Below the pieces are notes generated by a model that saw only the letters and a program-made list of their open reading frames with translations, did no database searches and was not told where the DNA came from. Below, in pieces: positions 4,221-33,872 of a stretch of DNA of 64,000 nt. The translations under genes and the position numbers were made by a program. The stretch is from assembly GCA_947259215.1 (NCBI GenBank), contig CAMYLJ010000001.1, positions 84,505 through 148,504 on the forward strand, in the 5' to 3' direction. Source of the DNA: an uncultured delta proteobacterium (GTDB lineage: Bacteria > Myxococcota_A > UBA9160 > JAFDET01). Positions within the stretch are counted from its first letter, which is position 1. The number at the start of each line of letters is the position of its first letter.

Positions 4221-4936
<716 letters not shown>

Positions 4937-4943
4937 CGCCGAC

Positions 4944-5423
4944 TCACTTCCCGCCGCTCTTCCGCTTGCGCGCGTGGTCCACCAGGTACTCGAGCACCAC
5001 CTCGTCGAGGGGCTTCTCGGACACGATGTTCTGGCCGAAGGGGCGCGACGGCTCGGACGGGCCGGCGGCAGCGGCAGCGGGCTCGGACTCCGGGGGCCGG
5101 GTCGGCGTCTCCGGCTGGGTGGTGGACCCGGTGACGTCGGTCGAGGCCCCCGCGCCCAGGCGCTGGTCGATCAGCCCGTCGAAGGCCCCCGCCCGCAGGC
5201 GCTTCAGCATCGACTTGTGCTGGGCCTCCATCCGCTTCTTCACCTCCCCCTCCAGATCGAGCGAGTCGAGCACGTCGTCGTACTTGCTCTTCTCCGAAGA
5301 GAGGATCGTCCCGTGGTGGTAGAGGTGCGTGATGATGTGGGGATTGCGGACGCCGCTGTCCTCGGTCTGGACGTGGAACAGCACACCGCGATGACGAATG
5401 TTCGTGTTGAATCCGGACAGCAT
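4944..5423 (-). CDS. Conserved-looking small protein of unknown function, first gene of the ftsEX operon
   Basis: Trimmed from the 813-aa track ORF to ATG at 5423. The 159-aa product reads MLSGFNTNIRHRGVLFHVQTEDSGVRNPHIITHLYHHGTILSSEKSKYDD..., followed by a P/T/E/A-rich linker and a basic tail. High-GC3 coding-like codons. Its stop lies 7 nt before the ftsE start. Confidence 0.7.
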   Translation of the reverse strand: MLSGFNTNIRHRGVLFHVQTEDSGVRNPHIITHLYHHGTILSSEKSKYDDVLDSLDLEGEVKKRMEAQHKSMLKRLRAGAFDGLIDQRLGAGASTDVTGSTTQPETPTRPPESEPAAAAAGPSEPSRPFGQNIVSEKPLDEVVLEYLVDHARKRKSGGK

Positions 5424-5686
5424 CCCCGGTCCGTCCCCCCGAGCGGAGAGCGGCCCAATGTGCGCGACGGGGCCGGCGCGCGCAAGCAACTCGCGCGGCA
5501 GGCACCGGAGCACACGTCGGGTTTCGCCGATTCCGCCGGCCCGGCGAGCGTATCGGCCAGCCGGCCGCGGCCCTGAACGCGCAAGGCCGGGAGGGGGCCC
5601 CGGCCGTGAATGCGGGGGCCGGGGAGCGGACCCCGGCCCGCGGATCGCGAGCCGGGGCCCCAAGGCGGCGGCGCGGAGGGCCCGCG

Positions 5687-6337
5687 CTAGGGCGCCCGGC
5701 GCAGGGCGCCGGGGGCTGCCGCCAGGCCCGCGAGACCCGCGAGCGCGAGGAGCCCCCCGGCCGGCTCCGGCACCGAGACCGGGGCGCTGCCCGGGGTCGG
5801 CGTGGCCAGGACGGCGAAGTCGGCGGCGTTGTCGTCCGTGTCCAGGTCCGCGAAGGCACGGGCCAGGCTGGAGCCCGCCGGCGGGTCGGGCGCGGCGGCG
5901 CCCTCGCCGGCGAAGACCTCGCCGGCGCCGAAGACGCCATAGCCGACGGCGTCGATCACGCTCGAGGCGTCGCGCAGCACCACGGAGTCCGGGCCGTTCT
6001 GGAAGTCGAAGTTGGCGACCAGGTCCGCGCCCAGTACCGAGGTGCCGCCGCCGGAGGTGCCGTCCGCCACCACGAACAGGCCGTCGGCGGGGATCACCCC
6101 GGACAGGGCGACAGTCGGTCCCGCCTGGCCGTTGGCGCCGTTCACGCCCTCGAGGAAGAGCCCCGTCAGCGACGTCCCCGGCGCGCCGTAGAGCTCGACG
6201 AACGAGAGCCCGTCGTCCGAGCCCACGGCGTCGTAGAGCAGCTCGGAGATCAGGGGCAGGCTGCGGGCCGGACCCGCCGCGCACAGCGTGAGCGCGGCGA
6301 CCAGGCCCAGGGTCGGAAGATGGAGCGGCCGAAACAT
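5687..6337 (-). CDS. Secreted lamin-tail-domain (LTD) protein with a PEP-CTERM sorting signal
   Basis: Signal peptide, then an LTD-like start (LISELLYDAVGSDDGLSFVELYG). The C-terminus VPEPAGGLLALAGLAGLAAAPGALRRAP has the PEP motif, a hydrophobic helix and a basic tail. Confidence 0.75.
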   Translation of the reverse strand: MFRPLHLPTLGLVAALTLCAAGPARSLPLISELLYDAVGSDDGLSFVELYGAPGTSLTGLFLEGVNGANGQAGPTVALSGVIPADGLFVVADGTSGGGTSVLGADLVANFDFQNGPDSVVLRDASSVIDAVGYGVFGAGEVFAGEGAAAPDPPAGSSLARAFADLDTDDNAADFAVLATPTPGSAPVSVPEPAGGLLALAGLAGLAAAPGALRRAP

Positions 6338-6367
6338 GGCGTTCCTCCGGGACCGGCGGGGCGAAGA

Positions 6368-7900
6368 TCAAGGCGAGAGCGACGCCGCGCGCCGGCCGAA
6401 CCAGCCGCCGGTCCAGGCGTCGAGCCCCGCCGCGAGCTCGTCGGCTCGCAGGCGCAGCCGCGCCGCCTCCTCGCGGGTGGAGCCGGGCCCGGAGGCCAGC
6501 GCCAGCAGCACGCGGCGTCGCTCGAAGTAGAGTCGGGTCACCTCGTCCAGCACGTCGTCCCGCAGCTCGATCAGCGCGCGCCCCTCGCGGGAGACGTCCA
6601 GGGCGTCCGGGTGGAAGACCGTGTCGCCCAGGTCCCAGCTGAAGACGAGGCTCACGCCGACGTCGGTTCCACGATCGAACTCCTCGTCGAAGAGGTCCCT
6701 CAGCCCGCCGGACAGGAAGGCCTGGTCGAAGTCCCGCCGGCGGTCCCGGGAGAGATCCCCGCCGGCGCGCAGGTCCACCGTCGGGAGCCAGCCGCGGCGG
6801 TCCACGCCGCGGCGCAGGGCGCGCAGGCGCCCGGGGTCGAGGTCCAGGTAGGCCAGCGCCGCGCGCTGAACGCTGCGGACGTCGGGCTCGGCGCTCCGAG
6901 GCGGAAGGGCCGGTCGCTCGGCGCTGTGCGACGGGGCCGGCTCGGAGGGGGAAGCGGCCGCGGCGCCACGCACGAGGCCGCGCACACCCGCCGCCACGAG
7001 CCCGCTTCCGCTGCGCGTGAGGGCGTGCATGGCGACGTCCGCCGGCGCCCCGACGCGCGTCCAGGGCCCCCCGGGCTCGCCGGACACCAGCAGCCCCCGG
7101 TCGCTGGCGAGCCAGGTGCGGCCCGCGTGCACGGCCCCCCGGCGCGCGCGGGCGCCTGCCGGGAGCTCCAGGGGCAGACTCGCCGCGGTCTCCTGGCCCG
7201 CGGCGACGACGGCGACCCAGTCGGCACCGATGGCCAGCACCGCGCGGCCCAGGGGCACGAGATCGAGCGCATCGGAGCGGGCGCCCCGCCCGCGGAGGGC
7301 GACGCGTTCGGCGGGATCCAGCCGGAGCTCCGCTCCCTCCCGCCTGCCCGGCACGCGATACAGGCGCCCTCCCGCGCTCAGCCAAAGCTCGAATAGGGGG
7401 GTGTCAACACCCTGAACCAGAAGGAGAACCGAATTCACCGCACCCGTGGGAAGCCCTTCGCGCGCGCGACTCCAGCGGTGACCGTCGGGCGACACGAACA
7501 CGCCTCCCTCGCCGGCCACGGCCAGGATCCCCGACGCGATCGAGATCCGGGCGAGCCGCCGGTCCCGCTCTCCCACGCCCGGTGAGCGGTCCTCGAGCTG
7601 CCCCCCTGGCGCCAATCGCGCGAGCCCGGCGCTGCCGGCGATCCAGAGCACACCGCGGGCGTCGAAGGCCAGGTCCGCCGCGTCCCCACGCAGCGCATGG
7701 CGCTGCCAGCCCTCGGCGGTCTGCACCAGCGCGCCGCGGGCGTCCGCCACCGCCAGCTCGCCCGCGGGACCGCTCGCGACCGCCACGAGCTCCGTGGAAG
7801 CCCCGGGAACCCGCTGCCGCTCCCAGCGCAGGGGCGGCTCGGCGGCCAGGGCCACGCTGGCCTGAAGCGTCAGCAGCGGGATCAGGAGGAAGAGGCGCAC
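6368..7900 (-). CDS. Secreted hypothetical protein, N-terminal beta-propeller-like region
   Basis: 510 aa with signal peptide MRLFLLIPLLTLQASVALAAE. It has repetitive G/A/V-rich strands and one BNR-like motif (SPDGHRW). The C-terminal ~170 aa is an unknown domain. Codon pattern is coding-like. Confidence 0.6.
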   Translation of the reverse strand: MRLFLLIPLLTLQASVALAAEPPLRWERQRVPGASTELVAVASGPAGELAVADARGALVQTAEGWQRHALRGDAADLAFDARGVLWIAGSAGLARLAPGGQLEDRSPGVGERDRRLARISIASGILAVAGEGGVFVSPDGHRWSRAREGLPTGAVNSVLLLVQGVDTPLFELWLSAGGRLYRVPGRREGAELRLDPAERVALRGRGARSDALDLVPLGRAVLAIGADWVAVVAAGQETAASLPLELPAGARARRGAVHAGRTWLASDRGLLVSGEPGGPWTRVGAPADVAMHALTRSGSGLVAAGVRGLVRGAAAASPSEPAPSHSAERPALPPRSAEPDVRSVQRAALAYLDLDPGRLRALRRGVDRRGWLPTVDLRAGGDLSRDRRRDFDQAFLSGGLRDLFDEEFDRGTDVGVSLVFSWDLGDTVFHPDALDVSREGRALIELRDDVLDEVTRLYFERRRVLLALASGPGSTREEAARLRLRADELAAGLDAWTGGWFGRRAASLSP

Positions 7901-8048: not shown

Positions 8049-8705
8049 ATGCGGCGCGCCGCGTTCGTACTCCCCGTCCTGGCCGCAGCCCTGCTCGGAT
8101 CCCCGCTCGCAGCCGACGAGCTCGATCCCGAGCGACCGACCATCTACAAGTGGGTGGACGAGAACGGCATCGCCCACTACACGACCGACCGCAAGCGCAT
8201 CCCCTCCAATCTGCGCAACCGGATCCGGGACACGGACAGCATCCGCGCCGAGCAGGCCGCACCTGCGGCGGCATCCCGGGCGCGGGCTCAGGACGCCGCT
8301 CGCGCGAACGAGGGGCTCGCGCGTCCCGCGCCGAAGAGCGACGAGGTCTGGGCCGTGCGCGACGAGGACACCGCTGCGGAGGGCGAGTCGGTGGCCCGCG
8401 GCGGCTTCACGGAGTCCGGCGACCCCGAGGGCAGCGCCGCACCCATCGTCGAAGACCCGGCGACGCGCGCCGAGCGCGCGGACCTGGACAACCGCATCGC
8501 GACCCTGGAGCAGGAGCTGGCCCGCGACGAGGAGCGACTGAAGCAGCTCATCAGCGAGGCCCGGCCCGAAGCCGCGCAGCCGGTGCCCCTGTACCGCGAC
8601 CCGGAGCTCGAGGAGATCGCCCAGCGCTTCCCCCAGATCCAGGCGGACCTGGCAGCGCTGCGGGCACGGCGCCGCAGCCTCGACCTGCCGACGGGCACCA
8701 ACTAG
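8049..8705 (+). CDS. DUF4124-like secreted protein
   Basis: I prefer ATG at 8049 (MRRAAFVLPVLAAALLGSPLAA signal). The motif IYKWVDENGIAHYTTD is typical of DUF4124. The rest is a charged coiled-coil-like tail. Confidence 0.65.
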   Translation: MRRAAFVLPVLAAALLGSPLAADELDPERPTIYKWVDENGIAHYTTDRKRIPSNLRNRIRDTDSIRAEQAAPAAASRARAQDAARANEGLARPAPKSDEVWAVRDEDTAAEGESVARGGFTESGDPEGSAAPIVEDPATRAERADLDNRIATLEQELARDEERLKQLISEARPEAAQPVPLYRDPELEEIAQRFPQIQADLAALRARRRSLDLPTGTN

Positions 8706-8711
8706 ATCGCC

Positions 8712-9668
8712 GTGGCGCCCACCCACGCGCGACCCATCGTGGCGCTGGCCGGCGGCGTGGGGGCGGCGCGCTTCCTGCGCGGGCTGGTGGAGGCCGTTCC
8801 GGCCGAGCAGGTGGCCGCGGTCGTGAACACCGGGGACGACGCGGAGTTCTACGGCGTCCACGTCTCGCCGGACCTCGACATCGTCACCTACACGCTGGCG
8901 GACCGCGTGAACCGGGAGCGGGGCTACGGCATCGAGGGCGACTCCTTCGGCGTGGTGGACGCCCTCGGCGCGCTGGGGCACGAGACCTGGTTCCGCCTGG
9001 GAGATCGGGACTTCGCGACCTGCCTGCACCGCACGGGGCGCCTGCGGGCGGGCGCAGGCCTGGCCGCCGTGACGGACGAGATCCGGCGGGCCTTCGGCGT
9101 CGCCGTGCGCATCGTGCCCATGTCCGAGGATCCCTGTCCCACGTACGTGGAGTTCGAGGGCGGGCGCCGCGTGCACTTCGAAGAGTACCTGGCGCGCGAC
9201 GGGGCGCCGGGCGACGTGCGCGGCGTCGATCTGGCCGCCGCCCGTGCCGCCCGGCCGGCACCCGGGGTGACGGAGCTCCTGCGCGCCGCGGAGACGATCC
9301 TCGTCTGCCCGAGCAACCCGGTGGTCTCGATCGGGCCCATCCTCGCGCTGCCCGGCCTGCGCGAGGCCATCGCCGCATCCGGCGCGCCCGTGGTCGGGGT
9401 CTCGCCCATCGTCGGCGGCGCCCCGGTGAAGGGGCCCGCGGATCGCCTGCTGCGCGGGGTCGGCATCGAGGTCTCCGCCCGCGGCGTCGCGGGCCTCTAC
9501 CGCGACTGGCTGCACGGCTTCGTGATCGACGCCCGGGACAGCGAGCAGGCGGCCGAGGTGGGAGCCCTGGGCCTGCGCGCCGTCGTGACCGACACCATCA
9601 TGCGCGACCGCGGCGCCGCGGCGGCCCTGGCCCGCACGGCCCTGGAGCTGGCTGCGCAGCTGCGATGA
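8712..9668 (+). CDS. cofD: 2-phospho-L-lactate transferase (F420 biosynthesis)
   Basis: N-terminus IVALAGGVGAARFLRGL...VVNTGDD matches the CofD/FbiA signature. 318 aa, GTG start. Confidence 0.85.
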   Translation: MAPTHARPIVALAGGVGAARFLRGLVEAVPAEQVAAVVNTGDDAEFYGVHVSPDLDIVTYTLADRVNRERGYGIEGDSFGVVDALGALGHETWFRLGDRDFATCLHRTGRLRAGAGLAAVTDEIRRAFGVAVRIVPMSEDPCPTYVEFEGGRRVHFEEYLARDGAPGDVRGVDLAAARAARPAPGVTELLRAAETILVCPSNPVVSIGPILALPGLREAIAASGAPVVGVSPIVGGAPVKGPADRLLRGVGIEVSARGVAGLYRDWLHGFVIDARDSEQAAEVGALGLRAVVTDTIMRDRGAAAALARTALELAAQLR

Positions 9669-10309: not shown

Positions 10310-11061
10310 CGGCGCCCCCCGCGCCCGTGCGCCTGGTGCCGATCCCCGGCGTACCGGCCGTCGCGCCGGGCGACGACCTGGCGGCGCTCGTCGCCGACGC
10401 CGCGGCGCAGGCCGGTATCACGCTGCGCGACGGGGTGCTGGTCGTGTGCCAGAAGGTCGTGTCCAAGGCGGAGGGCCGGCTCGCGCGGCTGGCCGAGGTG
10501 GAGCCCTCCCCGGAGGCGCGGAAGATCGCTCGCGAGGAGGACAGGGATCCGCGCCAGGTGGAGCTCGTGTTGCGGGAGAGCCGGCGCATCGTGCGCCGCG
10601 GCCACGGGGTGCTCATCGCCGAGACCCACCACGGCTTCGTCTGCGCCAACGCCGGCGTCGATCTCTCGAACGCGCCGGAGGACGGAGTCGCGGTGCTGCT
10701 GCCGCTGGATCCGGACGCTTCGGCGCGCCGGCTGCGCGACGCCCTGGCGCCGCCGGAGGCGCGCCTCGGCATCATCGTCTCCGACACCTTCGGGCGCCCC
10801 TGGCGCGAGGGCCTGGTGGACGTGGCCATCGGCTGCGCGGGGATGTCGCCGCTGCGCGACGACCGGGGCAGCCACGACCTCGCCGGCCGCGAGCTCCAGG
10901 TCACCGCGCTCGCGACCGCAGATCAGCTGGCGGCGGCGGCCGGGCTGCTCATGCCCAAGGCGGCCGGGATCGCCGCGGTCTGGATCGAGGGCGTGGCGAT
11001 CGAGGGCGACGCCCCGCTGCGCTCGCTCCTGCGCGACCCGGCCGGCGATCTCTTCCGCTGA
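10306..11061 (+). CDS. cofE: Coenzyme F420-0:L-glutamate ligase
   Basis: GTG at 10306 overlaps the cofC stop (GTGA). The motifs VLVVCQKVVSKAEGR...HGFVCANAGVDLSN...SDTFGRPWREG are CofE / FbiB N-domain motifs. Confidence 0.85.
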   Translation: MTAPPAPVRLVPIPGVPAVAPGDDLAALVADAAAQAGITLRDGVLVVCQKVVSKAEGRLARLAEVEPSPEARKIAREEDRDPRQVELVLRESRRIVRRGHGVLIAETHHGFVCANAGVDLSNAPEDGVAVLLPLDPDASARRLRDALAPPEARLGIIVSDTFGRPWREGLVDVAIGCAGMSPLRDDRGSHDLAGRELQVTALATADQLAAAAGLLMPKAAGIAAVWIEGVAIEGDAPLRSLLRDPAGDLFR

Positions 11062-11074
11062 GCGCGAAGCCGGA

Positions 11075-11677
11075 TCAGGCCAGCTCGCGGGCGAGGGCCG
11101 ACCACAGGGTGTCGATGCCGAGCCCGCTCTGGGCGGAGGTGGCCACCACGCGCTCCGCCGGCAACTCGAAGGCCCGCACCAGCTCCCGCACCCGGGCGGC
11201 GCGGCGACCGGGCTTCAGCTTGTCGCACTTGGTGAGGGCCACCAGCACCGGGATCCGGCGCTCCGCCAGCCAGGCCAGGAGGTCGAGCTCGTCATCCGAG
11301 ACGTCGCGTCGCAGGTCCTGGAGCAGCACCGCCACCCGCAGGCTGCCCCGCGCCTCCAGGTAGCCCTCCACCAGGACCTGCCAGCGCTGGCGCTCGGCCT
11401 TCGAGACCCGCGCCCAGCCGTAGCCCGGCAGGTCCACCAGCAGGAGCTCGCGATTCGCACCGCCGCCGCGACCCGTGAGCCGGTAGAAGTGAAGCAGCCG
11501 GGTCTTCCCCGGCGTGGAGCTCGTCTGCGCCAGCCGCTTCCGCCCGGCCAGGCGGTTCAGCAGGCTCGACTTGCCCACGTTCGAGCGCCCCAGGAACGCC
11601 AGCTCCGGCAGCCCCTCGGCCGGGAGCGTGGCCGGCGAGGCGGCGCTCGCCACCCGCTCGGCGCTCGCCACTTTCAC
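11075..11677 (-). CDS. engB: Ribosome biogenesis GTPase YsxC/EngB
   Basis: GTG at 11677 overlaps the aminotransferase stop (GTGA). It has G1 GRSNVGKSS, G3 DLPGYG and G4 TKCDK. Confidence 0.85.
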   Translation of the reverse strand: MKVASAERVASAASPATLPAEGLPELAFLGRSNVGKSSLLNRLAGRKRLAQTSSTPGKTRLLHFYRLTGRGGGANRELLLVDLPGYGWARVSKAERQRWQVLVEGYLEARGSLRVAVLLQDLRRDVSDDELDLLAWLAERRIPVLVALTKCDKLKPGRRAARVRELVRAFELPAERVVATSAQSGLGIDTLWSALARELA

Positions 11678-17239: not shown

Positions 17240-17955
17240 GCGAGCCGGTGGTGGAGGCCACCGGTCTCAGCAAGCGGTTCGGACCGGTGGTCGCCCTGCG
17301 CGGCATCGACCTGCAGGTTCCGCGCGGGAGCCTGCTCGCCGTGCTCGGTCCCAACGGTGCCGGCAAGTCCACCCTGCTGCGGCTGCTGGCGGGCCTCGCG
17401 CGCCCGAGCGCGGGAACCCTGCGGGTCGGCGACGCCGCCGGCGACCGGCGTGCGGCCCGGCGCGAGATCGGCTTCATCGGCCACCAGACCTTCCTCTACC
17501 CGGCGCTGACGGCGCGCGAGAACCTGCGCTTCGCCGCCCGGCTCTACGGCGTCGCTGGAGCCGAGGGCCGGATCGCCCGGCTGCTGGCGGAGCAGGACCT
17601 GGAGCCGCTGGCGGATCGCGCGGCGGGAACCCTGTCTCGCGGGCAGGCCCAGCGGCTGGCCATCGCCCGCGGCCTGGTCCACGACCCCGCCGTCGTGCTC
17701 CTCGACGAGCCCATGAGCGGGCTCGACCGGGCGGCGGCGGGTCGCCTGGCTGCGCGCCTCGGACGCCTGCGCGACGACGGGCGCACCCTCGTGCTCGTGA
17801 CCCACGACCTGGCGCGGGCCGCCGAGCTGGCCGACGCCGCGCTGGTGCTGGTGGCCGGCCGCGTCGCCCAGCGTGCCGAAGGCGCCGCGCTCGCGCCGGA
17901 GGAGCTGGAGCGCGCCTACCTCGCGGCCCTGGAGAGCGGCGGAGGTGCGGCGTGA
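17236..17955 (+). CDS. ccmA: Heme exporter ATP-binding protein CcmA
   Basis: GTG at 17236. Walker A GPNGAGKST, signature LSRGQAQRLAIARG and Walker B VLLDEP. Confidence 0.85.
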   Translation: MSEPVVEATGLSKRFGPVVALRGIDLQVPRGSLLAVLGPNGAGKSTLLRLLAGLARPSAGTLRVGDAAGDRRAARREIGFIGHQTFLYPALTARENLRFAARLYGVAGAEGRIARLLAEQDLEPLADRAAGTLSRGQAQRLAIARGLVHDPAVVLLDEPMSGLDRAAAGRLAARLGRLRDDGRTLVLVTHDLARAAELADAALVLVAGRVAQRAEGAALAPEELERAYLAALESGGGAA

Positions 17956-19869: not shown

Positions 19870-20382
19870 GTGGCAACGAGGATGGCCAGCATGAAACGCG
19901 GAGTCGGGTACTGCGAGAACACGGACTGCGAGGATTACGCCAAGGGCGTCTTCCTGTTGAACCATGGCGACACGTTCTACTGCCCGCGCTGTCGTCAGCT
20001 CGGCAAGGTGGAGAAGGAGCGCGGCTTCTACACGGGGAACTCGGACATCTTCAAGGAGGTCCGGGTCGAGTACAACTTCGATCCGATCAACGGAATCTAC
20101 CGGGAGATCGCGATCGTCCGCGACGAGAGCTTGTGGGGCCGCAACAACGTCTACACGCTGCAGTCGCCCCTGATCAAGACCGAGAAGCGCGCCCTCAAGG
20201 TGGCCGAGGCGATCCTGGCCAACTTGAACCGCTACCGCGGGTTGCTCAACGGCGACGACATCCCCCGCACCACCGAGATCATCCTCTCCTTCGACGAGCC
20301 CTTCGAGGAGTTCCAGAAGAAGCTCCAGCAGCTCAGCAAGGAGTGGGAGGCCAGCGGGTTGCGCGAGCAGGCCAGCCGCTAG
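19870..20382 (+). CDS. Orphan zinc-ribbon protein of unknown function
   Basis: The track ORF starts at GTG 19870. More likely starts are ATG 19882 or ATG 19891 (GAGG lies 9 nt upstream of 19891). It has C-x4-C...C-x2-C (CENTDCEDY...YCPRCRQ). The residue mix is K/N/E/I/F/Y-rich, unlike its neighbours, but GC3 is still high. A clean intrinsic terminator follows. Confidence 0.7.
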   Translation: MATRMASMKRGVGYCENTDCEDYAKGVFLLNHGDTFYCPRCRQLGKVEKERGFYTGNSDIFKEVRVEYNFDPINGIYREIAIVRDESLWGRNNVYTLQSPLIKTEKRALKVAEAILANLNRYRGLLNGDDIPRTTEIILSFDEPFEEFQKKLQQLSKEWEASGLREQASR

Positions 20383-20446: not shown

Positions 20447-20630
20447 GGGCCGGTGCCGGGGGGGGGCGCGTTGGTCCTGCAGGCGGGGCGGGGGCGAAGC
20501 GGGGGCTCGCTGCGCTCCTCCGGTTCGCGCGCCGCGGCCTCACGACGCGAGAGCCGGGTCCGTCAACGCGCTCACAGGCCGCGCTCCGCGAGTGCCCGCT
20601 CCGCCCTCGCGACGCCCTACCGGCGCGCAA

Positions 20631-20773
20631 CGCTTCCGACACCGCGCTGCGAAGAAAGACCGTCACTCGCCGCACCCGGGCGAACACGTCTCCGGAGGTC
20701 GGGGCCGCAAGCGCCGCCTCGGGCGGCGCGCGCAGCGAGCCGAAGGCGAGCGAAGTCACGATAAATGAGAGCC
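20631..20773 (+). repeat. Copy A of a ~144-nt hairpin-bearing intergenic repeat family
   Basis: By hand alignment it is roughly 85-90% identical to 33015-33158. It contains hairpins TCGCC-N7-GGCGA and GCGCCGCC-N3-GGCGGCGC, and the AT-rich tail GAAGTCACGATAAATGA. Confidence 0.85.
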
Positions 20774-20822
20774 ACCCGCGCCCCCGCGAACCCACCGGAG
20801 CCCGCGGCCAACCCAAGCCGCC

Positions 20823-21374
20823 CTACCCCCGCCAGCGCGCAGCCAGGTCGATACACAGCCCCGCCCAGATCGCCCCGGGTCCGTTGTGTTCGTGGCGTTC
20901 GACCGGCTCCGGGTGCTCCGCCAACGCGTCCGCCAGCGGCGCGCGATACCAGGGGAAGAGTCCCGGCGGCGGCGCCTCGGGCGCGAACCAGGCCACGCGG
21001 GGCGTCTCGTCGCTCGCCGTCAGGTTCCCGCCCAGCGGGCGACAGCGCCAGATCCGGGCCCGATGGGGCCGGAACCCGGTCCGGACGTAGTCCCCCACCC
21101 GCCCTTCCAGGGCGATCGCGATTCCCGTCTCCTCCCGCACCTCACGCACGAGCGCGGCCTCCAGTGACTCCCCGGGCTCCGGGTTTCCGCCGGGCAGCTC
21201 CCAGCCCTGGAGGTCCGAGCGCTGACACAGCAGCAGCCCGGCATCGCCCAACACGACGGCCTGCACCACGAGCAGCGGCGCGGCCTCCACCCGCGGCTGC
21301 GCCAAGCCCCACCAGGCGAGCCGGGCGTAGGTGGGCAGCGCGCCGGCGAGCCGCCGCATTGCCCCACTCCCCAC
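20823..21374 (-). CDS. NUDIX hydrolase
   Basis: Nudix box GGNPEPGESLEAALVREVREETG. The start may be the internal ATG at 21356. Confidence 0.8.
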   Translation of the reverse strand: MGSGAMRRLAGALPTYARLAWWGLAQPRVEAAPLLVVQAVVLGDAGLLLCQRSDLQGWELPGGNPEPGESLEAALVREVREETGIAIALEGRVGDYVRTGFRPHRARIWRCRPLGGNLTASDETPRVAWFAPEAPPPGLFPWYRAPLADALAEHPEPVERHEHNGPGAIWAGLCIDLAARWRG

Positions 21375-30361: not shown

Positions 30362-30435
30362 CGCGCCAGGCCGGGGGCCGCCCCCCACGAACCTGAAGCC
30401 CCCGTGAATGCCGGCCGGGCGTCGCGCCCCCGCCG

Positions 30436-30587: not shown

Positions 30588-33014
30588 ATGCCGATGAAGC
30601 GCCTTCTCGCCGTCCTCCTGCTGTGTCTGCTGACCGCGCCTGCGGCGGCACCGGCGGAGCCCCTCCCGCGTCCGCCCGGACTGGCGGCGCAGGTCGAGCT
30701 GTGGCGCCGCGTGTACGCAGAAGTGGACAGCGACGCGGGCCTGATCCACGACGACCGCCAGATGGACGTCATCTACGAGGAGCTGCGGGCTCCCCGGAGC
30801 CTCTCGCGCCGCGCCTCGGACCGCCGCGTGAAGGCCGCCAAGAAGAAGTACGCCGACGCCCTGAAGCGGCTGGCAACAGGCAAGCGCAGCGGGCTCAGCG
30901 AGACCGAGAAGCACGTGCTGGCGCTCTGGCCCCCGGACGTCTCCAACGCCACGCTGCGCTCGGCCGCCCGCCGGGTGCGCTTCCAGCGCGGCCTGGCCGA
31001 TCGCTTCCGCGACGGCGTGATCCGGGCCGGCCGCTGGCAGCCCTTCATCGAAGAGGTCTTCCACGAGGCCGGACTGCCGGCCGAGATCGCCGCCCTGCCC
31101 CACGTGGAGTCGTCCTTCAATCCCCACGCCTACTCCAGCGCCGGTGCGGCCGGGCTGTGGCAGTTCACCCGCTCCACGGGCCGGCTCTACATGCACATCG
31201 ACTACACCGTGGACGAGCGCATGGACCCGTACAAGGCCACCGAGGCGGCCGCCCGGCTGCTGCTCGACAACCACGCCGAATTGAAGAGCTGGCCCCTGGC
31301 CATCACTGCCTACAACCACGGGCGCGCGGGCATGCAGCGGGCCGTGCGCACCGTAGGCAGCCGCGACATCACCCGGATCGTCGAGCGCTACAAGGGCCGC
31401 GCCTTCAAGTTCGCGTCGCGGAACTTCTACAGCGAGCTGCTGGCCGCGATCGAGGTGTCGAGCAACGCCGAGCGCTACTTCGGGCCGCTCGAGGTCGAGC
31501 ACGCGCTCGACTACGAGGTGGTGGAGCTCCAGCACTACTACAAGGCAACGAGCCTCGAGCGCGCGCTCGGCATCCCGGCCAAGGTGCTGCGCGAGCACAA
31601 CCTGTCGCTGCGCTCCCCGGTCTGGCGCGGCCAGAAGTACGTGCCGAAGGGCTTCGGCCTGCGCGTCCCGCGCGACCCGGGCGGCGCGCCGGCGGCGGGC
31701 GCCATCGCCGCCATCGCCTCCGCCGAGCGCTTCACGCGCCAGAAGCGCGACACCGTCTACACCGTGCGCCGCGGCGACACCCTCTCCCAGATCGCCAGCC
31801 GCTACGGCACCACCATGTCGGAGCTGGTCGCGCTGAACGGCCTGCGCAGCCGCCATCGCATCCGCATCGGCCAGCGCCTGCGGCTGCCCACGGAAGCCGC
31901 ACCGAGCCTGGCCTCGCTCGAGGACTTCGACGGCAGCTACCGGGTGCGCCGCGGCGACAGCGTGTCGGAGATCGCCCGCCGCTTCGGCGTCGCCGAAGCC
32001 GAGCTGGTCGCCGCCAACGGCCTCCGCAACAAGAACCGCCTCTACGTCGGCCAGACCCTTCAGGTCCCCGTCGCCGGCGACAAGGCCAGCGAGCCGAAGC
32101 CGACCGAAGTCGCCAGTGCCGCGAAGAAGCCCGCTGCGACGAAGCCTGCCGAGACCCCGAAGGCGACCGACGAGTCACCGGAGAAGCCGGTCGAAGTCGC
32201 CGCCGTCGCGCCGAAGCCCGAAGCCACGGCGCCCGCCGCGGACGAAGCGAAGCCGGCCCCCGAGGAACGCGAGCCGCCGAAACCCACCCCGGCCACGAAG
32301 GAAGCCCGCACCGCGGAACCCGAGAAGCCCGTAGAGGTCGCAAAGGCCAACCCCGACACCGAGGCCTCCGCGCCCGCCGAGCCCACCAGTGCGAGCGGCC
32401 CCGCAAGCCCGGCGCCCCGCAGCTCGGACGACCCGGAAGCCCCGACGCCGGGCGCGCAGCTCGCCGAAGGCGAGCGAAGTCACGATAAATCGGAGCCGAC
32501 CGAGCCCCGCGAACCCTCCCACGCCCGCGGCCCCAGCGAGATCGCCTCCAGCCCCGGCGCCTCCCCTCCCGTGAGCCGCCCGCCGCCCGTGTCGATCGGA
32601 GTCGGCGCCGACGACCGCATCGTGGTCGAGGCCGGCGAGACCCTCGGCCACTACGCCGATTGGCTCGAGCTGGCCACCGAGCGCCTGCGCCGCACCAACG
32701 GCATGCGCCGACGCTCGGACATCGTGATCGGGCAGCGCGTGCTCCTGGACTTCTCGCGCGTCTCACGCAGCGAGTTCGAAGCGCGCCGCCTCCGCTACCA
32801 CGAGTCGATCCAGGCGGCCTTCTTCGCCGATCACCGGGTCGCCGGCACCCGCTCCCACGTCCTGCGCCGGGGCGACACCCTCTGGAGCCTCTCCCGCCGC
32901 CACCGCTCGGTACCCCTCTGGCTCCTCCGCCAGTACAACCCCCAGCTCGACCTGACCGACCTGCAACCCGGCGTCACGATCACGATCCCCCGCGTCCAGA
33001 AACGAAGCACCTGA
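30588..33014 (+). CDS. Membrane-bound lytic murein transglycosylase (MltD-like): SLT domain plus LysM repeats
   Basis: I prefer ATG at 30588 (MPMKRLLAVLLLCLL signal). SLT active site ALPHVESSFNPHAYSSAGAAGLWQF. LysM repeats: YTVRRGDTLSQIASRYG and YRVRRGDSVSEIARRFG, plus a C-terminal LysM-like copy HVLRRGDTLWSLSRRH. A long P/E/A/K-rich linker separates them. Confidence 0.85.
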   Translation: MPMKRLLAVLLLCLLTAPAAAPAEPLPRPPGLAAQVELWRRVYAEVDSDAGLIHDDRQMDVIYEELRAPRSLSRRASDRRVKAAKKKYADALKRLATGKRSGLSETEKHVLALWPPDVSNATLRSAARRVRFQRGLADRFRDGVIRAGRWQPFIEEVFHEAGLPAEIAALPHVESSFNPHAYSSAGAAGLWQFTRSTGRLYMHIDYTVDERMDPYKATEAAARLLLDNHAELKSWPLAITAYNHGRAGMQRAVRTVGSRDITRIVERYKGRAFKFASRNFYSELLAAIEVSSNAERYFGPLEVEHALDYEVVELQHYYKATSLERALGIPAKVLREHNLSLRSPVWRGQKYVPKGFGLRVPRDPGGAPAAGAIAAIASAERFTRQKRDTVYTVRRGDTLSQIASRYGTTMSELVALNGLRSRHRIRIGQRLRLPTEAAPSLASLEDFDGSYRVRRGDSVSEIARRFGVAEAELVAANGLRNKNRLYVGQTLQVPVAGDKASEPKPTEVASAAKKPAATKPAETPKATDESPEKPVEVAAVAPKPEATAPAADEAKPAPEEREPPKPTPATKEARTAEPEKPVEVAKANPDTEASAPAEPTSASGPASPAPRSSDDPEAPTPGAQLAEGERSHDKSEPTEPREPSHARGPSEIASSPGASPPVSRPPPVSIGVGADDRIVVEAGETLGHYADWLELATERLRRTNGMRRRSDIVIGQRVLLDFSRVSRSEFEARRLRYHESIQAAFFADHRVAGTRSHVLRRGDTLWSLSRRHRSVPLWLLRQYNPQLDLTDLQPGVTITIPRVQKRST
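32448..32531 (+). repeat. Copy B (partial, 3' half) of the repeat family, embedded in frame in the LysM/SLT coding region
   Basis: gggcgcgcagctcgccgaaggcgagcgaagtcacgataaatcggagcc... aligns to copy A 20720-20812. It is translated as AEGERSHDKSEPTEPREP. Confidence 0.75.
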
Positions 33015-33158
33015 CGCCTCCGACACCGCGCTCCGAAGAAGGACCGCCACTCGCCCCTCCGCGGCGAACACGCCTCCGGAGGCCGAGGCCGCAAGCGCCG
33101 CCGCAGGCGGCGCGCGCAGCGAGCCAAAGGCGAGCGAAGTCACGCTAAATGAAGAGCC
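33015..33158 (+). repeat. Copy C of the ~144-nt repeat family
   Basis: It starts 1 nt after the LysM/SLT stop codon. Same two hairpin stems as copy A but with different loops, and a GAAGTCACGCTAAATGA tail. Confidence 0.85.
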
Positions 33159-33200
33159 GGAGGAGCCACGCGAGCGCTGCGGCGCCGCGCGGCGAGGAAG

Positions 33201-33872
33201 TCACCGCACCTGAAACAGCGTCTCGTCCGGCAGCCGGATCGCCGTCAACGGCCCCCCGTAACAGGCCCCCGTGTCGATGCCGATGCTGAAGGGCGTGTTC
33301 CAGCGCACCTCCAGGTCCGGCGCCGGCGTGTGGCCGTAGATCACGGTCACCCCGAGGCGATGGGGCAGGTCGCCGCTGCTGCGCGACCAGAGCAGGTCCT
33401 CCGGGCGCGACCGCCGCAGCACGTACGCCACGTCACTCTGCTGGATGTGCCGCTCGTGAATGCCCGCGTGCACGAACAGGTAGTCGCCTTCCTGATGGTA
33501 CAGCCGCAGCTCCTGGTAGAACTTCTCGTGGGACTGGGGCAGGCGGAAGCGCGCCTCGCGGTCCTCGAAGTAGCCGTAGCTCGCCAGGGTGCGGTCGCCG
33601 CCGTTCAGCAGGAAGGCGTCGCCCCCGAAGTGCTCCTGCCCCGCCCAGCCCAGGAAGTCCAGGAACATGGCCTCGTGGTTCCCGATCAGGAAGACGCAGT
33701 CGATCTCCCGGGAGAGCTCGATCAGCCGCTCCACCACGCCGTGCGCGTCGGGGCCGCGGTCGACGTAGTCCCCGAGAAACACCAGACGGTCGTCGGGCTC
33801 GAGCGGCATGCGCTCGAGCAACGCGTCCAGCTTCTCCCGCTCCCCGTGGATGTCCCCCACCGCGTACAGCAC
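33201..33872 (-). CDS. Metallophosphoesterase (PPP-family Ser/Thr phosphatase / ApaH-like)
   Basis: GDIHG, GDYVDRG and GNHE motifs. Confidence 0.85.
   Translation of the reverse strand: MLYAVGDIHGEREKLDALLERMPLEPDDRLVFLGDYVDRGPDAHGVVERLIELSREIDCVFLIGNHEAMFLDFLGWAGQEHFGGDAFLLNGGDRTLASYGYFEDREARFRLPQSHEKFYQELRLYHQEGDYLFVHAGIHERHIQQSDVAYVLRRSRPEDLLWSRSSGDLPHRLGVTVIYGHTPAPDLEVRWNTPFSIGIDTGACYGGPLTAIRLPDETLFQVR

Follow-up and report, generated by a model that had tools for sequence, protein, structure and literature searches.

An interspersed repeat embedded in frame in the interdomain linker of an MltD-like lytic transglycosylase from an uncultured myxococcotal bacterium

A 64,000-nucleotide stretch of contig CAMYLJ010000001.1 (termed ‘the window’ below), from an uncultured bacterium of the Myxococcota, contains a gene for an MltD-like lytic transglycosylase whose long interdomain linker holds, in frame, a copy of an interspersed repeat. 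Two further copies of this repeat (‘A’ and ‘C’) lie in intergenic DNA of the same window, each between convergent genes, and the second of them fills the gap that immediately follows the transglycosylase gene (Table 1). The nearest sampled relative carries the embedded copy at the same site in its own gene, and translates part of it in a different reading frame.

The host gene encodes a protein of 808 to 868 amino acids (the longer form using an alternative start at 30408), with a signal peptide, an SLT domain (aa 162-262; Pfam, 2e-23) and LysM sequences in three stretches (Pfam, 2.8e-46), two of which (aa 391-434 and 450-494) precede the long linker while the third (aa ~759-790) lies in the C-terminal domain beyond it. 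An SLT catalytic domain combined with LysM repeats identifies an MltD-type lytic transglycosylase, and the homologues, which come from uncultured Myxococcota, are named membrane-bound lytic murein transglycosylase D. The linker contains EKPVEVA twice and a repeated E(V/I)A motif, and is predicted to be disordered: in an AlphaFold2 model based on a 34-sequence alignment, it has predicted local distance difference test (pLDDT) scores below 50 and no secondary structure, and the domains on either side are predicted with confidence to be folded. Across 120 homologues this linker measures anything from 44 to 206 aa; the window protein (172 aa) and its best homologue, P0001 (153 aa), are on the long side, and five of the next-ranked homologues span 109-143 aa. 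Relieved of the insert described here, the two long linkers would measure 104 and 96 aa, respectively, slightly under the range of those five.

Table 1. Positions of the transglycosylase gene, the repeat copies and their landmarks within the window.
Feature	Position	Strand	Basis or remark
MltD-like lytic transglycosylase gene	30588..33014	+	Open reading frame list, Pfam, homologue names
P/E/A/K-rich interdomain linker, predicted disordered	32076..32567 (aa 497-660)	+	AlphaFold2
Possible second, degenerate core-like stretch CAGCGAGCCGAAGCCGACCGAAGTC, translated S E P K P T E V	32087..32111	+	Start of linker
Left flanking direct repeat GAGGTCGCA	32334..32342	+	Orthologous to CAGATCGCC in L004
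Embedded copy of the repeat, 195 nt, probably a whole element	32343..32537 (aa ~586-650; with flanking repeats aa 583-653)	+	
Stretch translated in a different frame in the nearest relative’s orthologue, ~110 nt	32391..32500	+	Codon-annotated global DNA alignment with L004
Interval of secure homology (by E value) with the 3' part of copies A and C	32433..32532	+	BLASTN, nhmmer
26-nt family core GCGCAGCTCGCCGAAGGCGAGCGAAG, translated A Q L A E G E R S	32454..32479	+	
gat aaa TCG in the embedded copy, where intergenic copies show an in-frame TGA	32484..32492	+	
Right flanking direct repeat GAGATCGCC	32538..32546	+	204 nt (68 codons) from the left copy
Intergenic copy A	20622..20818	+	Between convergent genes 19870-20382 (+) and NUDIX 20823-21374 (-)
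Intergenic copy C	33015..33205	+	Whole gap from the MltD stop (33012-33014) to the stop (33201-33203) of the convergent metallophosphoesterase gene (33201-33872, minus strand)

The homology between the linker and the intergenic repeat is secure over the 3' part of the element, where sensitive BLASTN finds 84 of 105 aligned positions identical to copy A (20705-20809; 80%, E 5e-21) and 77% identity to copy C (33089-33193; E 1e-15), and where a profile made solely from the intergenic copies recovers the embedded site with an nhmmer E value of 1.1e-10. The embedded 26-nt core differs from that of copy A by two mismatches. An initial annotation of this DNA had noticed the resemblance at 32448-32531, which falls within the interval now established, and had translated the embedded segment correctly, as ...GAQLAEGERSHDKSEPTEPREPSHARGPSE...; the ~40 nt that it took for the downstream flank of copy A belong instead to the repeat, since the alignment of copies A and C reaches 20808 and 33193. 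In a very GC-rich genome with a linker of repetitive composition, the match might be thought a product of chance or composition, or else of a chimeric assembly, which the initial annotation had also considered. Either is very improbable: the matching sequence includes the AT-rich GTCACGATAAAT, which is unlike the composition of the linker, the window has three occurrences of a 22-mer from the core where shuffled sequences predict 0.00, and the same insertion is found in two independent assemblies of the relative (the JGI contigs L004 and L005). A contig from a third sample (L006) confirms just the copy C beside the gene, not the embedded site.

Copies A and C are 84% identical over 181 nt (20630-20808 aligned with 33014-33193, gaps included), and both appear from their sequences to be non-coding. 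Just past the core, two of the three plus-strand frames are closed by TAA and TGA, the in-frame TGA standing in gat aaa TGA in copy A (20760-20768) and in gct aaa TGA in copy C (33144-33152), and when the translations are compared by eye, amino-acid identity does not exceed nucleotide identity in any frame; none seems to have been conserved. The contrast between this TGA and the TCG of the embedded copy had been recognised at the outset and stands, with TGA in copy A and TCG in the gene, but its ‘copy B’ has to be understood as the embedded copy, the second intergenic copy reading gct aaa TGA. Copy C is intact in the 97.7% identical strain represented by L006. In L004 the MltD and metallophosphoesterase stop codons lie 31 nt apart (9156-9186) and ~147 nt of copy C are absent; the short gap corresponds to ~8-21 nt from the element’s beginning and ~20 nt from its end, with a 12-mer in common with copy A (CCCGCGGCCAAC), and is best read as the two ends of copy C joined by an internal deletion of ~147 nt, with ~7 nt of overlap at the junction.

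The extent of the embedded copy is less plain than its homology. Recognisable element sequence begins at ~32396 (CCCCGCAAGC), and the 5' ~55-90 nt have decayed past statistical detection, such that a Smith-Waterman comparison of the insert’s 5' half alone gives no significant homology (empirical p 0.01-0.4). The copy, described in the initial annotation as partial, is nevertheless probably a whole element, because its length of 195 nt between flanking repeats fits that of copy A (197 nt) and that of copy C (191 nt), because the flanking repeats are present, and because two 9-mers stand near their expected offsets. The first, CCGACACCG, is found in the window 11 nt after the left repeat, versus 15 nt in copy A, and the second, CGCTTCCGA, is retained in L004 at 6 nt versus 10; both are part of the element’s 5' end motif, CGCTTCCGACACCG.

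The nearest relative is represented by the same two JGI contigs, L004 and L005, which encode P0001 (83% amino-acid identity to the window protein) and are collinear with the window at 93-94.5% DNA identity. The P0001 linker carries the element at the same site (nhmmer E 1.9e-13), where, in the protein alignment, the relative reads the shared element as SEPKASEVTINE and the window reads it as AEGERSHDKS (the wider context being AQLAEGERSHDKSEPTEP in the window and ARARSEPKASEVTINEEPAEP in L004); AEGERSHDKSEPTEPR represents the window type and SEPKASEVTINEEPAEP the relative. The difference arises from indels on either side of the core, where the window is longer by 1 nt near 32391, by 24 nt within 32413-32449 and by 8 nt at 32491-32500. 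Together these account for the 33-nt difference between the repeat-to-repeat spans, which measure 204 nt in the window and 171 nt in L004; both spans are multiples of three, and the domain downstream is intact in both proteins. Few substitutions separate the two well-conserved C-terminal domains where they align. Within the element, a 43-nt block around the core shows only two differences between the window and L004 and yet is translated in different frames.

The two frames are related to the intergenic copies in different ways. That of the relative (ATA AAT GAA) corresponds to the sole open frame of copy A, whereas that of the window is the frame which holds the TGA in the intergenic copies, and the position of that TGA is now TCG; the TCG of the window and the frame shift of the relative thus look like two different ways of holding the reading frame open. 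When copy A is threaded in from the left flanking repeat in phase 0, it yields the window’s frame and meets the TGA, and the copy in the ancestor would therefore have been altered already or else have truncated the protein for a short time.

Beyond this pair the insertion was not found. None of 119 more distant MltD homologues (at or below 69% identity) carries the core peptide motifs, and no element is present in two contigs with full-length MltD genes from two more distant lineages (L007 and L008; L007 gives a weak match only). The insertion thus appears to be specific to a narrow lineage and yet older than the window organism, because the nearest relative has it and the 119 distant homologues lack the motifs. 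This bears on a check that the initial annotation had proposed, namely whether orthologues share the segment: it is lineage-specific, but it is not unique to this genome, the relative at ~93% DNA identity having it as well. Ancestral coding sequence is an improbable description of it, given that the sole orthologue with the segment is the nearest relative, which reads another frame.

The core, in contrast, is widespread. In 20-kb loci fetched by way of MltD homologues and of a conserved 170-aa protein whose gene flanks copy A, the family core takes the form GCGCAGCGAGCCG(A/C)AGGCGAGCGAAG (26 nt), usually with GCAAGCG upstream. Several related lineages have it between genes, on one strand or the other (L009 at 15624 and 10515, L010 at 10591, L011 at 10562, and L012 at 10948 and 17235), at one or two copies per locus that has it; the core is also seen in L004, and two fetched loci (L008 and L016) have none. 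It is near-identical across contigs whose MltD proteins share no more than ~69% identity with that of the window. The site equivalent to that of copy A is itself occupied in L010 (plus strand) and L009 (minus strand). Within the 64-kb window and the fetched loci, the 5' and 3' modules that complete the 195-nt form were found only in the window lineage.

These distributions indicate that the direction of transfer is from element to gene: the core and GCAAGCG are intergenic in related Myxococcota contigs whose MltD has no insert, the gene shows no detectable trace of the 5' half that copies A and C have in common, and none of the 119 distant MltD homologues carries the core peptide motifs. The initial annotation had allowed for both directions, an element entering a tolerant disordered linker or intergenic copies deriving from the coding segment, and the comparisons support the first of these and reject the second. 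The second could draw on the position of copy C, which starts right after the stop codon of the same gene, and on the core’s ability to encode a linker-like SEPKASE in one frame. It is very improbable, in that the core family is intergenic in genomes whose MltD lacks the segment, the 5' ~75 nt common to copies A and C cannot be detected in the gene, the homology of the embedded copy stops where the homology between A and C stops, and the intergenic copies have TAA or TGA in two of three frames.

Short direct repeats flank the embedded copy in both genomes. In the window the two 9-mers agree at seven of nine positions, and in L004 they are perfect (9/9; 8508-8516 and 8679-8687, 57 codons apart). 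Copy A is likewise flanked by a perfect 9-nt direct repeat, CGCCCTACC, at 20613-20621 and 20819-20827. For each of these perfect repeats the empirical chance is 0.026, as estimated in the window for 9-nt matches between 35-nt flanks spaced by 180 nt. An 8-nt repeat at copy C (GCACCTGA) was considered as a third target-site duplication and rejected as probably a coincidence, because rebuilding the site before insertion, by taking out the element together with one copy of the repeat, deletes the stop codon of the metallophosphoesterase gene and because the element-free L008 ends that protein at the same length.

The explanation that best accommodates these observations, at a probability of roughly three in four, is that a ~195-nt non-coding interspersed repeat inserted into the linker in a common ancestor of the window organism and its nearest sampled relative, and has drifted there since, the two frames diverging. 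In this scheme the repeat would be a composite particular to the lineage, with at its centre the 26-nt core, which is frequent between the genes of this uncultured Myxococcota clade. Insertion would have been transposition-like, with the duplication of ~9 bp of target, and the gene would have stayed functional, its product now including the translated element, because insert plus duplication make a multiple of three and the linker has no fold to disrupt. Thereafter the insert would have drifted as linker sequence, with compensating indels on either side of the core separating the two frames. The base composition of the insert may be set beside this: its third-position GC is 0.86 in the window and 0.74 in L004, against 0.96 in the folded N-terminal part of the gene and 0.71-0.73 in the intergenic copies.

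Several points weigh against parts of this account. The case for full length consists of a length, a pair of flanking repeats and two 9-mers whose offsets are approximately those expected. The linker repeats the E(V/I)A motif, and the flanking 9-mer is found at a third place in the L004 gene, so that the chance of a fortuitous flanking repeat there exceeds 0.026, and with the repeat at copy C probably coincidental, target-site-like repeats remain at two of the three copies. An inverted-repeat scan found no terminal inverted repeats common to copies A and C (the best pair, 13 nt at 77%, is in copy C only), no parent transposase is known, and just three copies of the 195-nt form are available. 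The resemblance of SEPKASE to the linker’s own composition is a further caution, one that weakens the second core-like stretch (32087-32111) and not the main site. The simplest reading would still be an insertion resembling transposition that duplicated ~9 bp of target, although inverted repeats are missing and the third copy is ambiguous.

The same weaknesses invite a different mechanism, in which the embedded sequence would have been copied locally from the neighbouring copy C, either by template switching during replication or by a tandem duplication of the end of the linker, the C-terminal domain and the element, followed by a deletion that restored a single open reading frame. The embedded copy and copy C are close (660 nt apart), in the same orientation and separated by a multiple of three, duplication followed by deletion can likewise leave short direct repeats at its junctions, and at the place where copy A reads TGAGAGCC, the L004 embedded copy and copy C both read TGAAGAGCC; the lack of terminal inverted repeats and of a transposase suits such copying as well. 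It is nonetheless unlikely. It requires two events, with boundaries that happen to coincide with the ends of the element, the linker sequence duplicated on either side amounts to 9 nt at most, the 3' part of the window’s embedded copy resembles copy A and not copy C, and an in-frame core in an unrelated gene of another genome indicates that such insertions recur without an adjacent copy at the gene’s end.

That second in-frame core was among the things that the initial annotation had suggested looking for. It lies in L010 (7084-7109), in a gene (5336-7231) for a 631-aa protein just upstream of ccmA/ccmB, where it falls in a linker before a C-terminal zinc ribbon and is translated as ...TGPAGTRSEPQASGIAQ... 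(GTRSEPQASG); the orthologue in L009 has an 8-residue gap at the site. In-frame capture has thus happened at least twice. The core-like stretch at the start of the MltD linker, which has two mismatches in 25 positions, is more doubtful: its nhmmer E value is 0.06 when the local profile is used and 4.5e-4 when the family profile is, it is confined to the window and P0001, and it may reflect compositional convergence instead of homology.

Whether the nucleotide sequence of the core does something is a separate question. The near-absence of change around it (2 differences in 43 nt, compared with 16% at four-fold degenerate sites of the gene; binomial p 0.02), its identity or near-identity in contigs whose MltD proteins are no more than ~69% identical, and the persistence of conservation at the DNA level despite different translation frames in the two orthologues could all be taken to mean that the embedded copy is kept for a working nucleotide sequence, which might bind a protein, act as an RNA element or cause a pause, and not merely tolerated. 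This is distinctly unlikely: the p value of 0.02 is post hoc and modest, gene conversion from other copies gives the same pattern, sequences upstream of the core fold no more stably than shuffles, no Rfam family matches, and no promoter-like site occurs within 32000-33300. The conservation of the core itself hints at nucleotide-level constraint or gene conversion. A broader conjecture is that the core marks an undescribed mobile family which makes ~9-bp duplications without inverted termini, and that it is a functional nucleic-acid motif, possibly the recognition site of a mobilising enzyme or host factor; the odds are against it, though it would explain the near-invariance of the core across diverged genomes and inside a differently framed coding region.

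Searches for structure and for wider relatives of the repeat gave little. Folding of copy A gave z scores of +1.4 on one strand and -0.4 on the other, that of copy C a z score of -2.75, and no consistent palindrome signal emerged. Local hairpins upstream of the core have folding energies no better than shuffles (z mostly near 0), and a conserved hairpin with compensatory changes, attractive by eye, was dropped for that reason. A role as bidirectional terminator, suggested by one terminator-like site on the minus strand (32509-32491), was likewise set aside, since shuffles yield as many such sites and the layout is not common to the family. Rfam returned nothing at gathering score in the window (sub-threshold noise appeared only around copy A and one L009 copy). 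A scan of public genomes with the very specific core GCGAGCGAAGTCACGNTAAAT gave just three chance matches, in coding regions of unrelated taxa; with the same core, a metagenome scan found one near-identical strain only and a viral scan found nothing, nor did a looser core match any viral contig. A protein search with five concatenated frames of copy A returned no score, although short matches cannot reach significance among 5.8 billion sequences. A phmmer search with the open frame of copy A against 1.84 billion representatives found no match, and no further translated full-length copies were detected. Exact look-ups for two of the window’s proteins gave no record. A search of the literature for the core sequence was also negative.

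Some neighbouring features deserve record in their own right. The intergenic region of copy A also holds, ~215 nt upstream of that copy, GGCTCGCTGCGC (20504-20515, within 20480-20531, minus strand), which matches exactly, as reverse complement, the core’s first 12 nt and may be a degenerate, inverted second copy; the minus-strand copy at the equivalent site in L009 may be compared with it. The equivalent site in L007 (2345-2414) measures just 70 nt. In it, CGACAC...GCGAAGAAG, similar to the 5' module of the window’s element, comes before a strong GC hairpin, GGAACCGCCCGGGGC...GCCCCGGGCGGTTCTCC; this site hints at a family assembled from separable modules. The gene flanking copy A at 19870-20382 (+) encodes a 170-aa protein with CxxC...CxxC motifs. 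Many Myxococcota lineages share this protein at 90-99% identity, although identity among their MltD proteins is only 55-69%; no Pfam domain is recorded for it, some members are labelled ‘ribosomal protein S27AE’ by JGI, and the codon composition of the gene is unusual for the genome (GC of 0.54, 0.37 and 0.95 at the three codon positions). The otherwise identical strains L011 and L015 differ in that a 450-nt segment in the former (11013-11462) replaces ~50 nt in the latter (11013-11062), the ~50 nt being three tandem ~25-nt units (CTCCGACCTGACGCGCAAAGACG) and the 450-nt segment, with terminal inverted repeats of ~75-95 nt and a degenerate core inside, being a different, hairpin-forming element that resembles a miniature inverted-repeat transposable element (MITE). 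Elsewhere in the window, adjacent direct-repeat pairs near its start (509-558/616-665, 74%; 553-612/656-715, 93%) mark a ~105-nt tandem duplication, and a 69-nt inverted repeat (4728-4796 and 17346-17414; 78% complementary, arms 12.5 kb apart) may reflect paralogous genes on opposite strands.

What the locus offers is a clean and datable uptake of repeat DNA as protein sequence in a free-living bacterium, with the intergenic, in-gene and sister-genome states all present for comparison. It illustrates that disordered interdomain linkers tolerate insertions of 57-68 codons and even the switching of frames within them, and it flags a repeat family of uncultured Myxococcota with no match in Rfam or in the literature sequence search. 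Knowledge of lytic transglycosylases, and of mobile elements in general, is unchanged by it; the case is a tidy but not unprecedented one of non-coding repeat DNA turned protein.

The closest precedent is provided by the Rickettsia palindromic elements (RPEs), non-autonomous repeats of ~150-200 nt that are found both between genes and in frame within open reading frames, where they are translated (PMC10969869); 44 integrations of RPEs into genes of Rickettsia conorii are counted in the same review (PMC10969869). The Myxococcota element resembles them in being short, in occurring both between genes and in frame, and in adding a peptide compatible with the host protein. It differs in that one gene in this lineage and one in a related genome are known to carry a copy, that the host is a free-living organism of high GC content, that overall folding energy shows no consistent palindrome signal, and that the insert lies in a disordered linker instead of on the surface of a folded domain, with orthologues reading it in different frames.

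ERIC, BOX and Correia elements and the MITEs of Anabaena are small, multi-copy, non-coding and mostly intergenic, with occasional in-frame fusions (PMC10969869). The present element, with three copies of 191-197 nt in the window lineage, is likewise non-coding and mostly intergenic, and its 9-nt flanking direct repeats resemble target-site duplications. It departs from MITEs in lacking terminal inverted repeats, in having a flanking duplication that is absent or coincidental at one of three copies, and in its modular construction, with lineage-specific 5' and 3' modules around a clade-wide core. With REP and BIME sequences it shares the placement of copies A and C at the 3' ends of genes, between convergent genes, as well as a modular family found in either orientation; but where those have a conserved hairpin with a GTAG head, the core here is a non-palindromic 26-mer with an imperfect direct repeat, GCGAGC(C)GAAG, present twice, and a GTAG head is not evident in the element copies that were read, though it was not searched for systematically. 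Nor was a RAYT transposase seen, though none was sought. The frame switch, finally, is of a kind with compensated frameshifts in disordered or low-complexity regions, in that ~110 nt are read in different frames before a second indel restores the original one; it is set apart from other such cases by the nature of the switched DNA, a recently acquired repeat whose intergenic copies have stops in two of three frames. The event would thus be of the same kind as those described for RPEs, cyanobacterial MITEs, ERIC and BOX; it took place in another phylum and involved an apparently undescribed repeat family, to which the frame switch between sister lineages adds a twist of its own.

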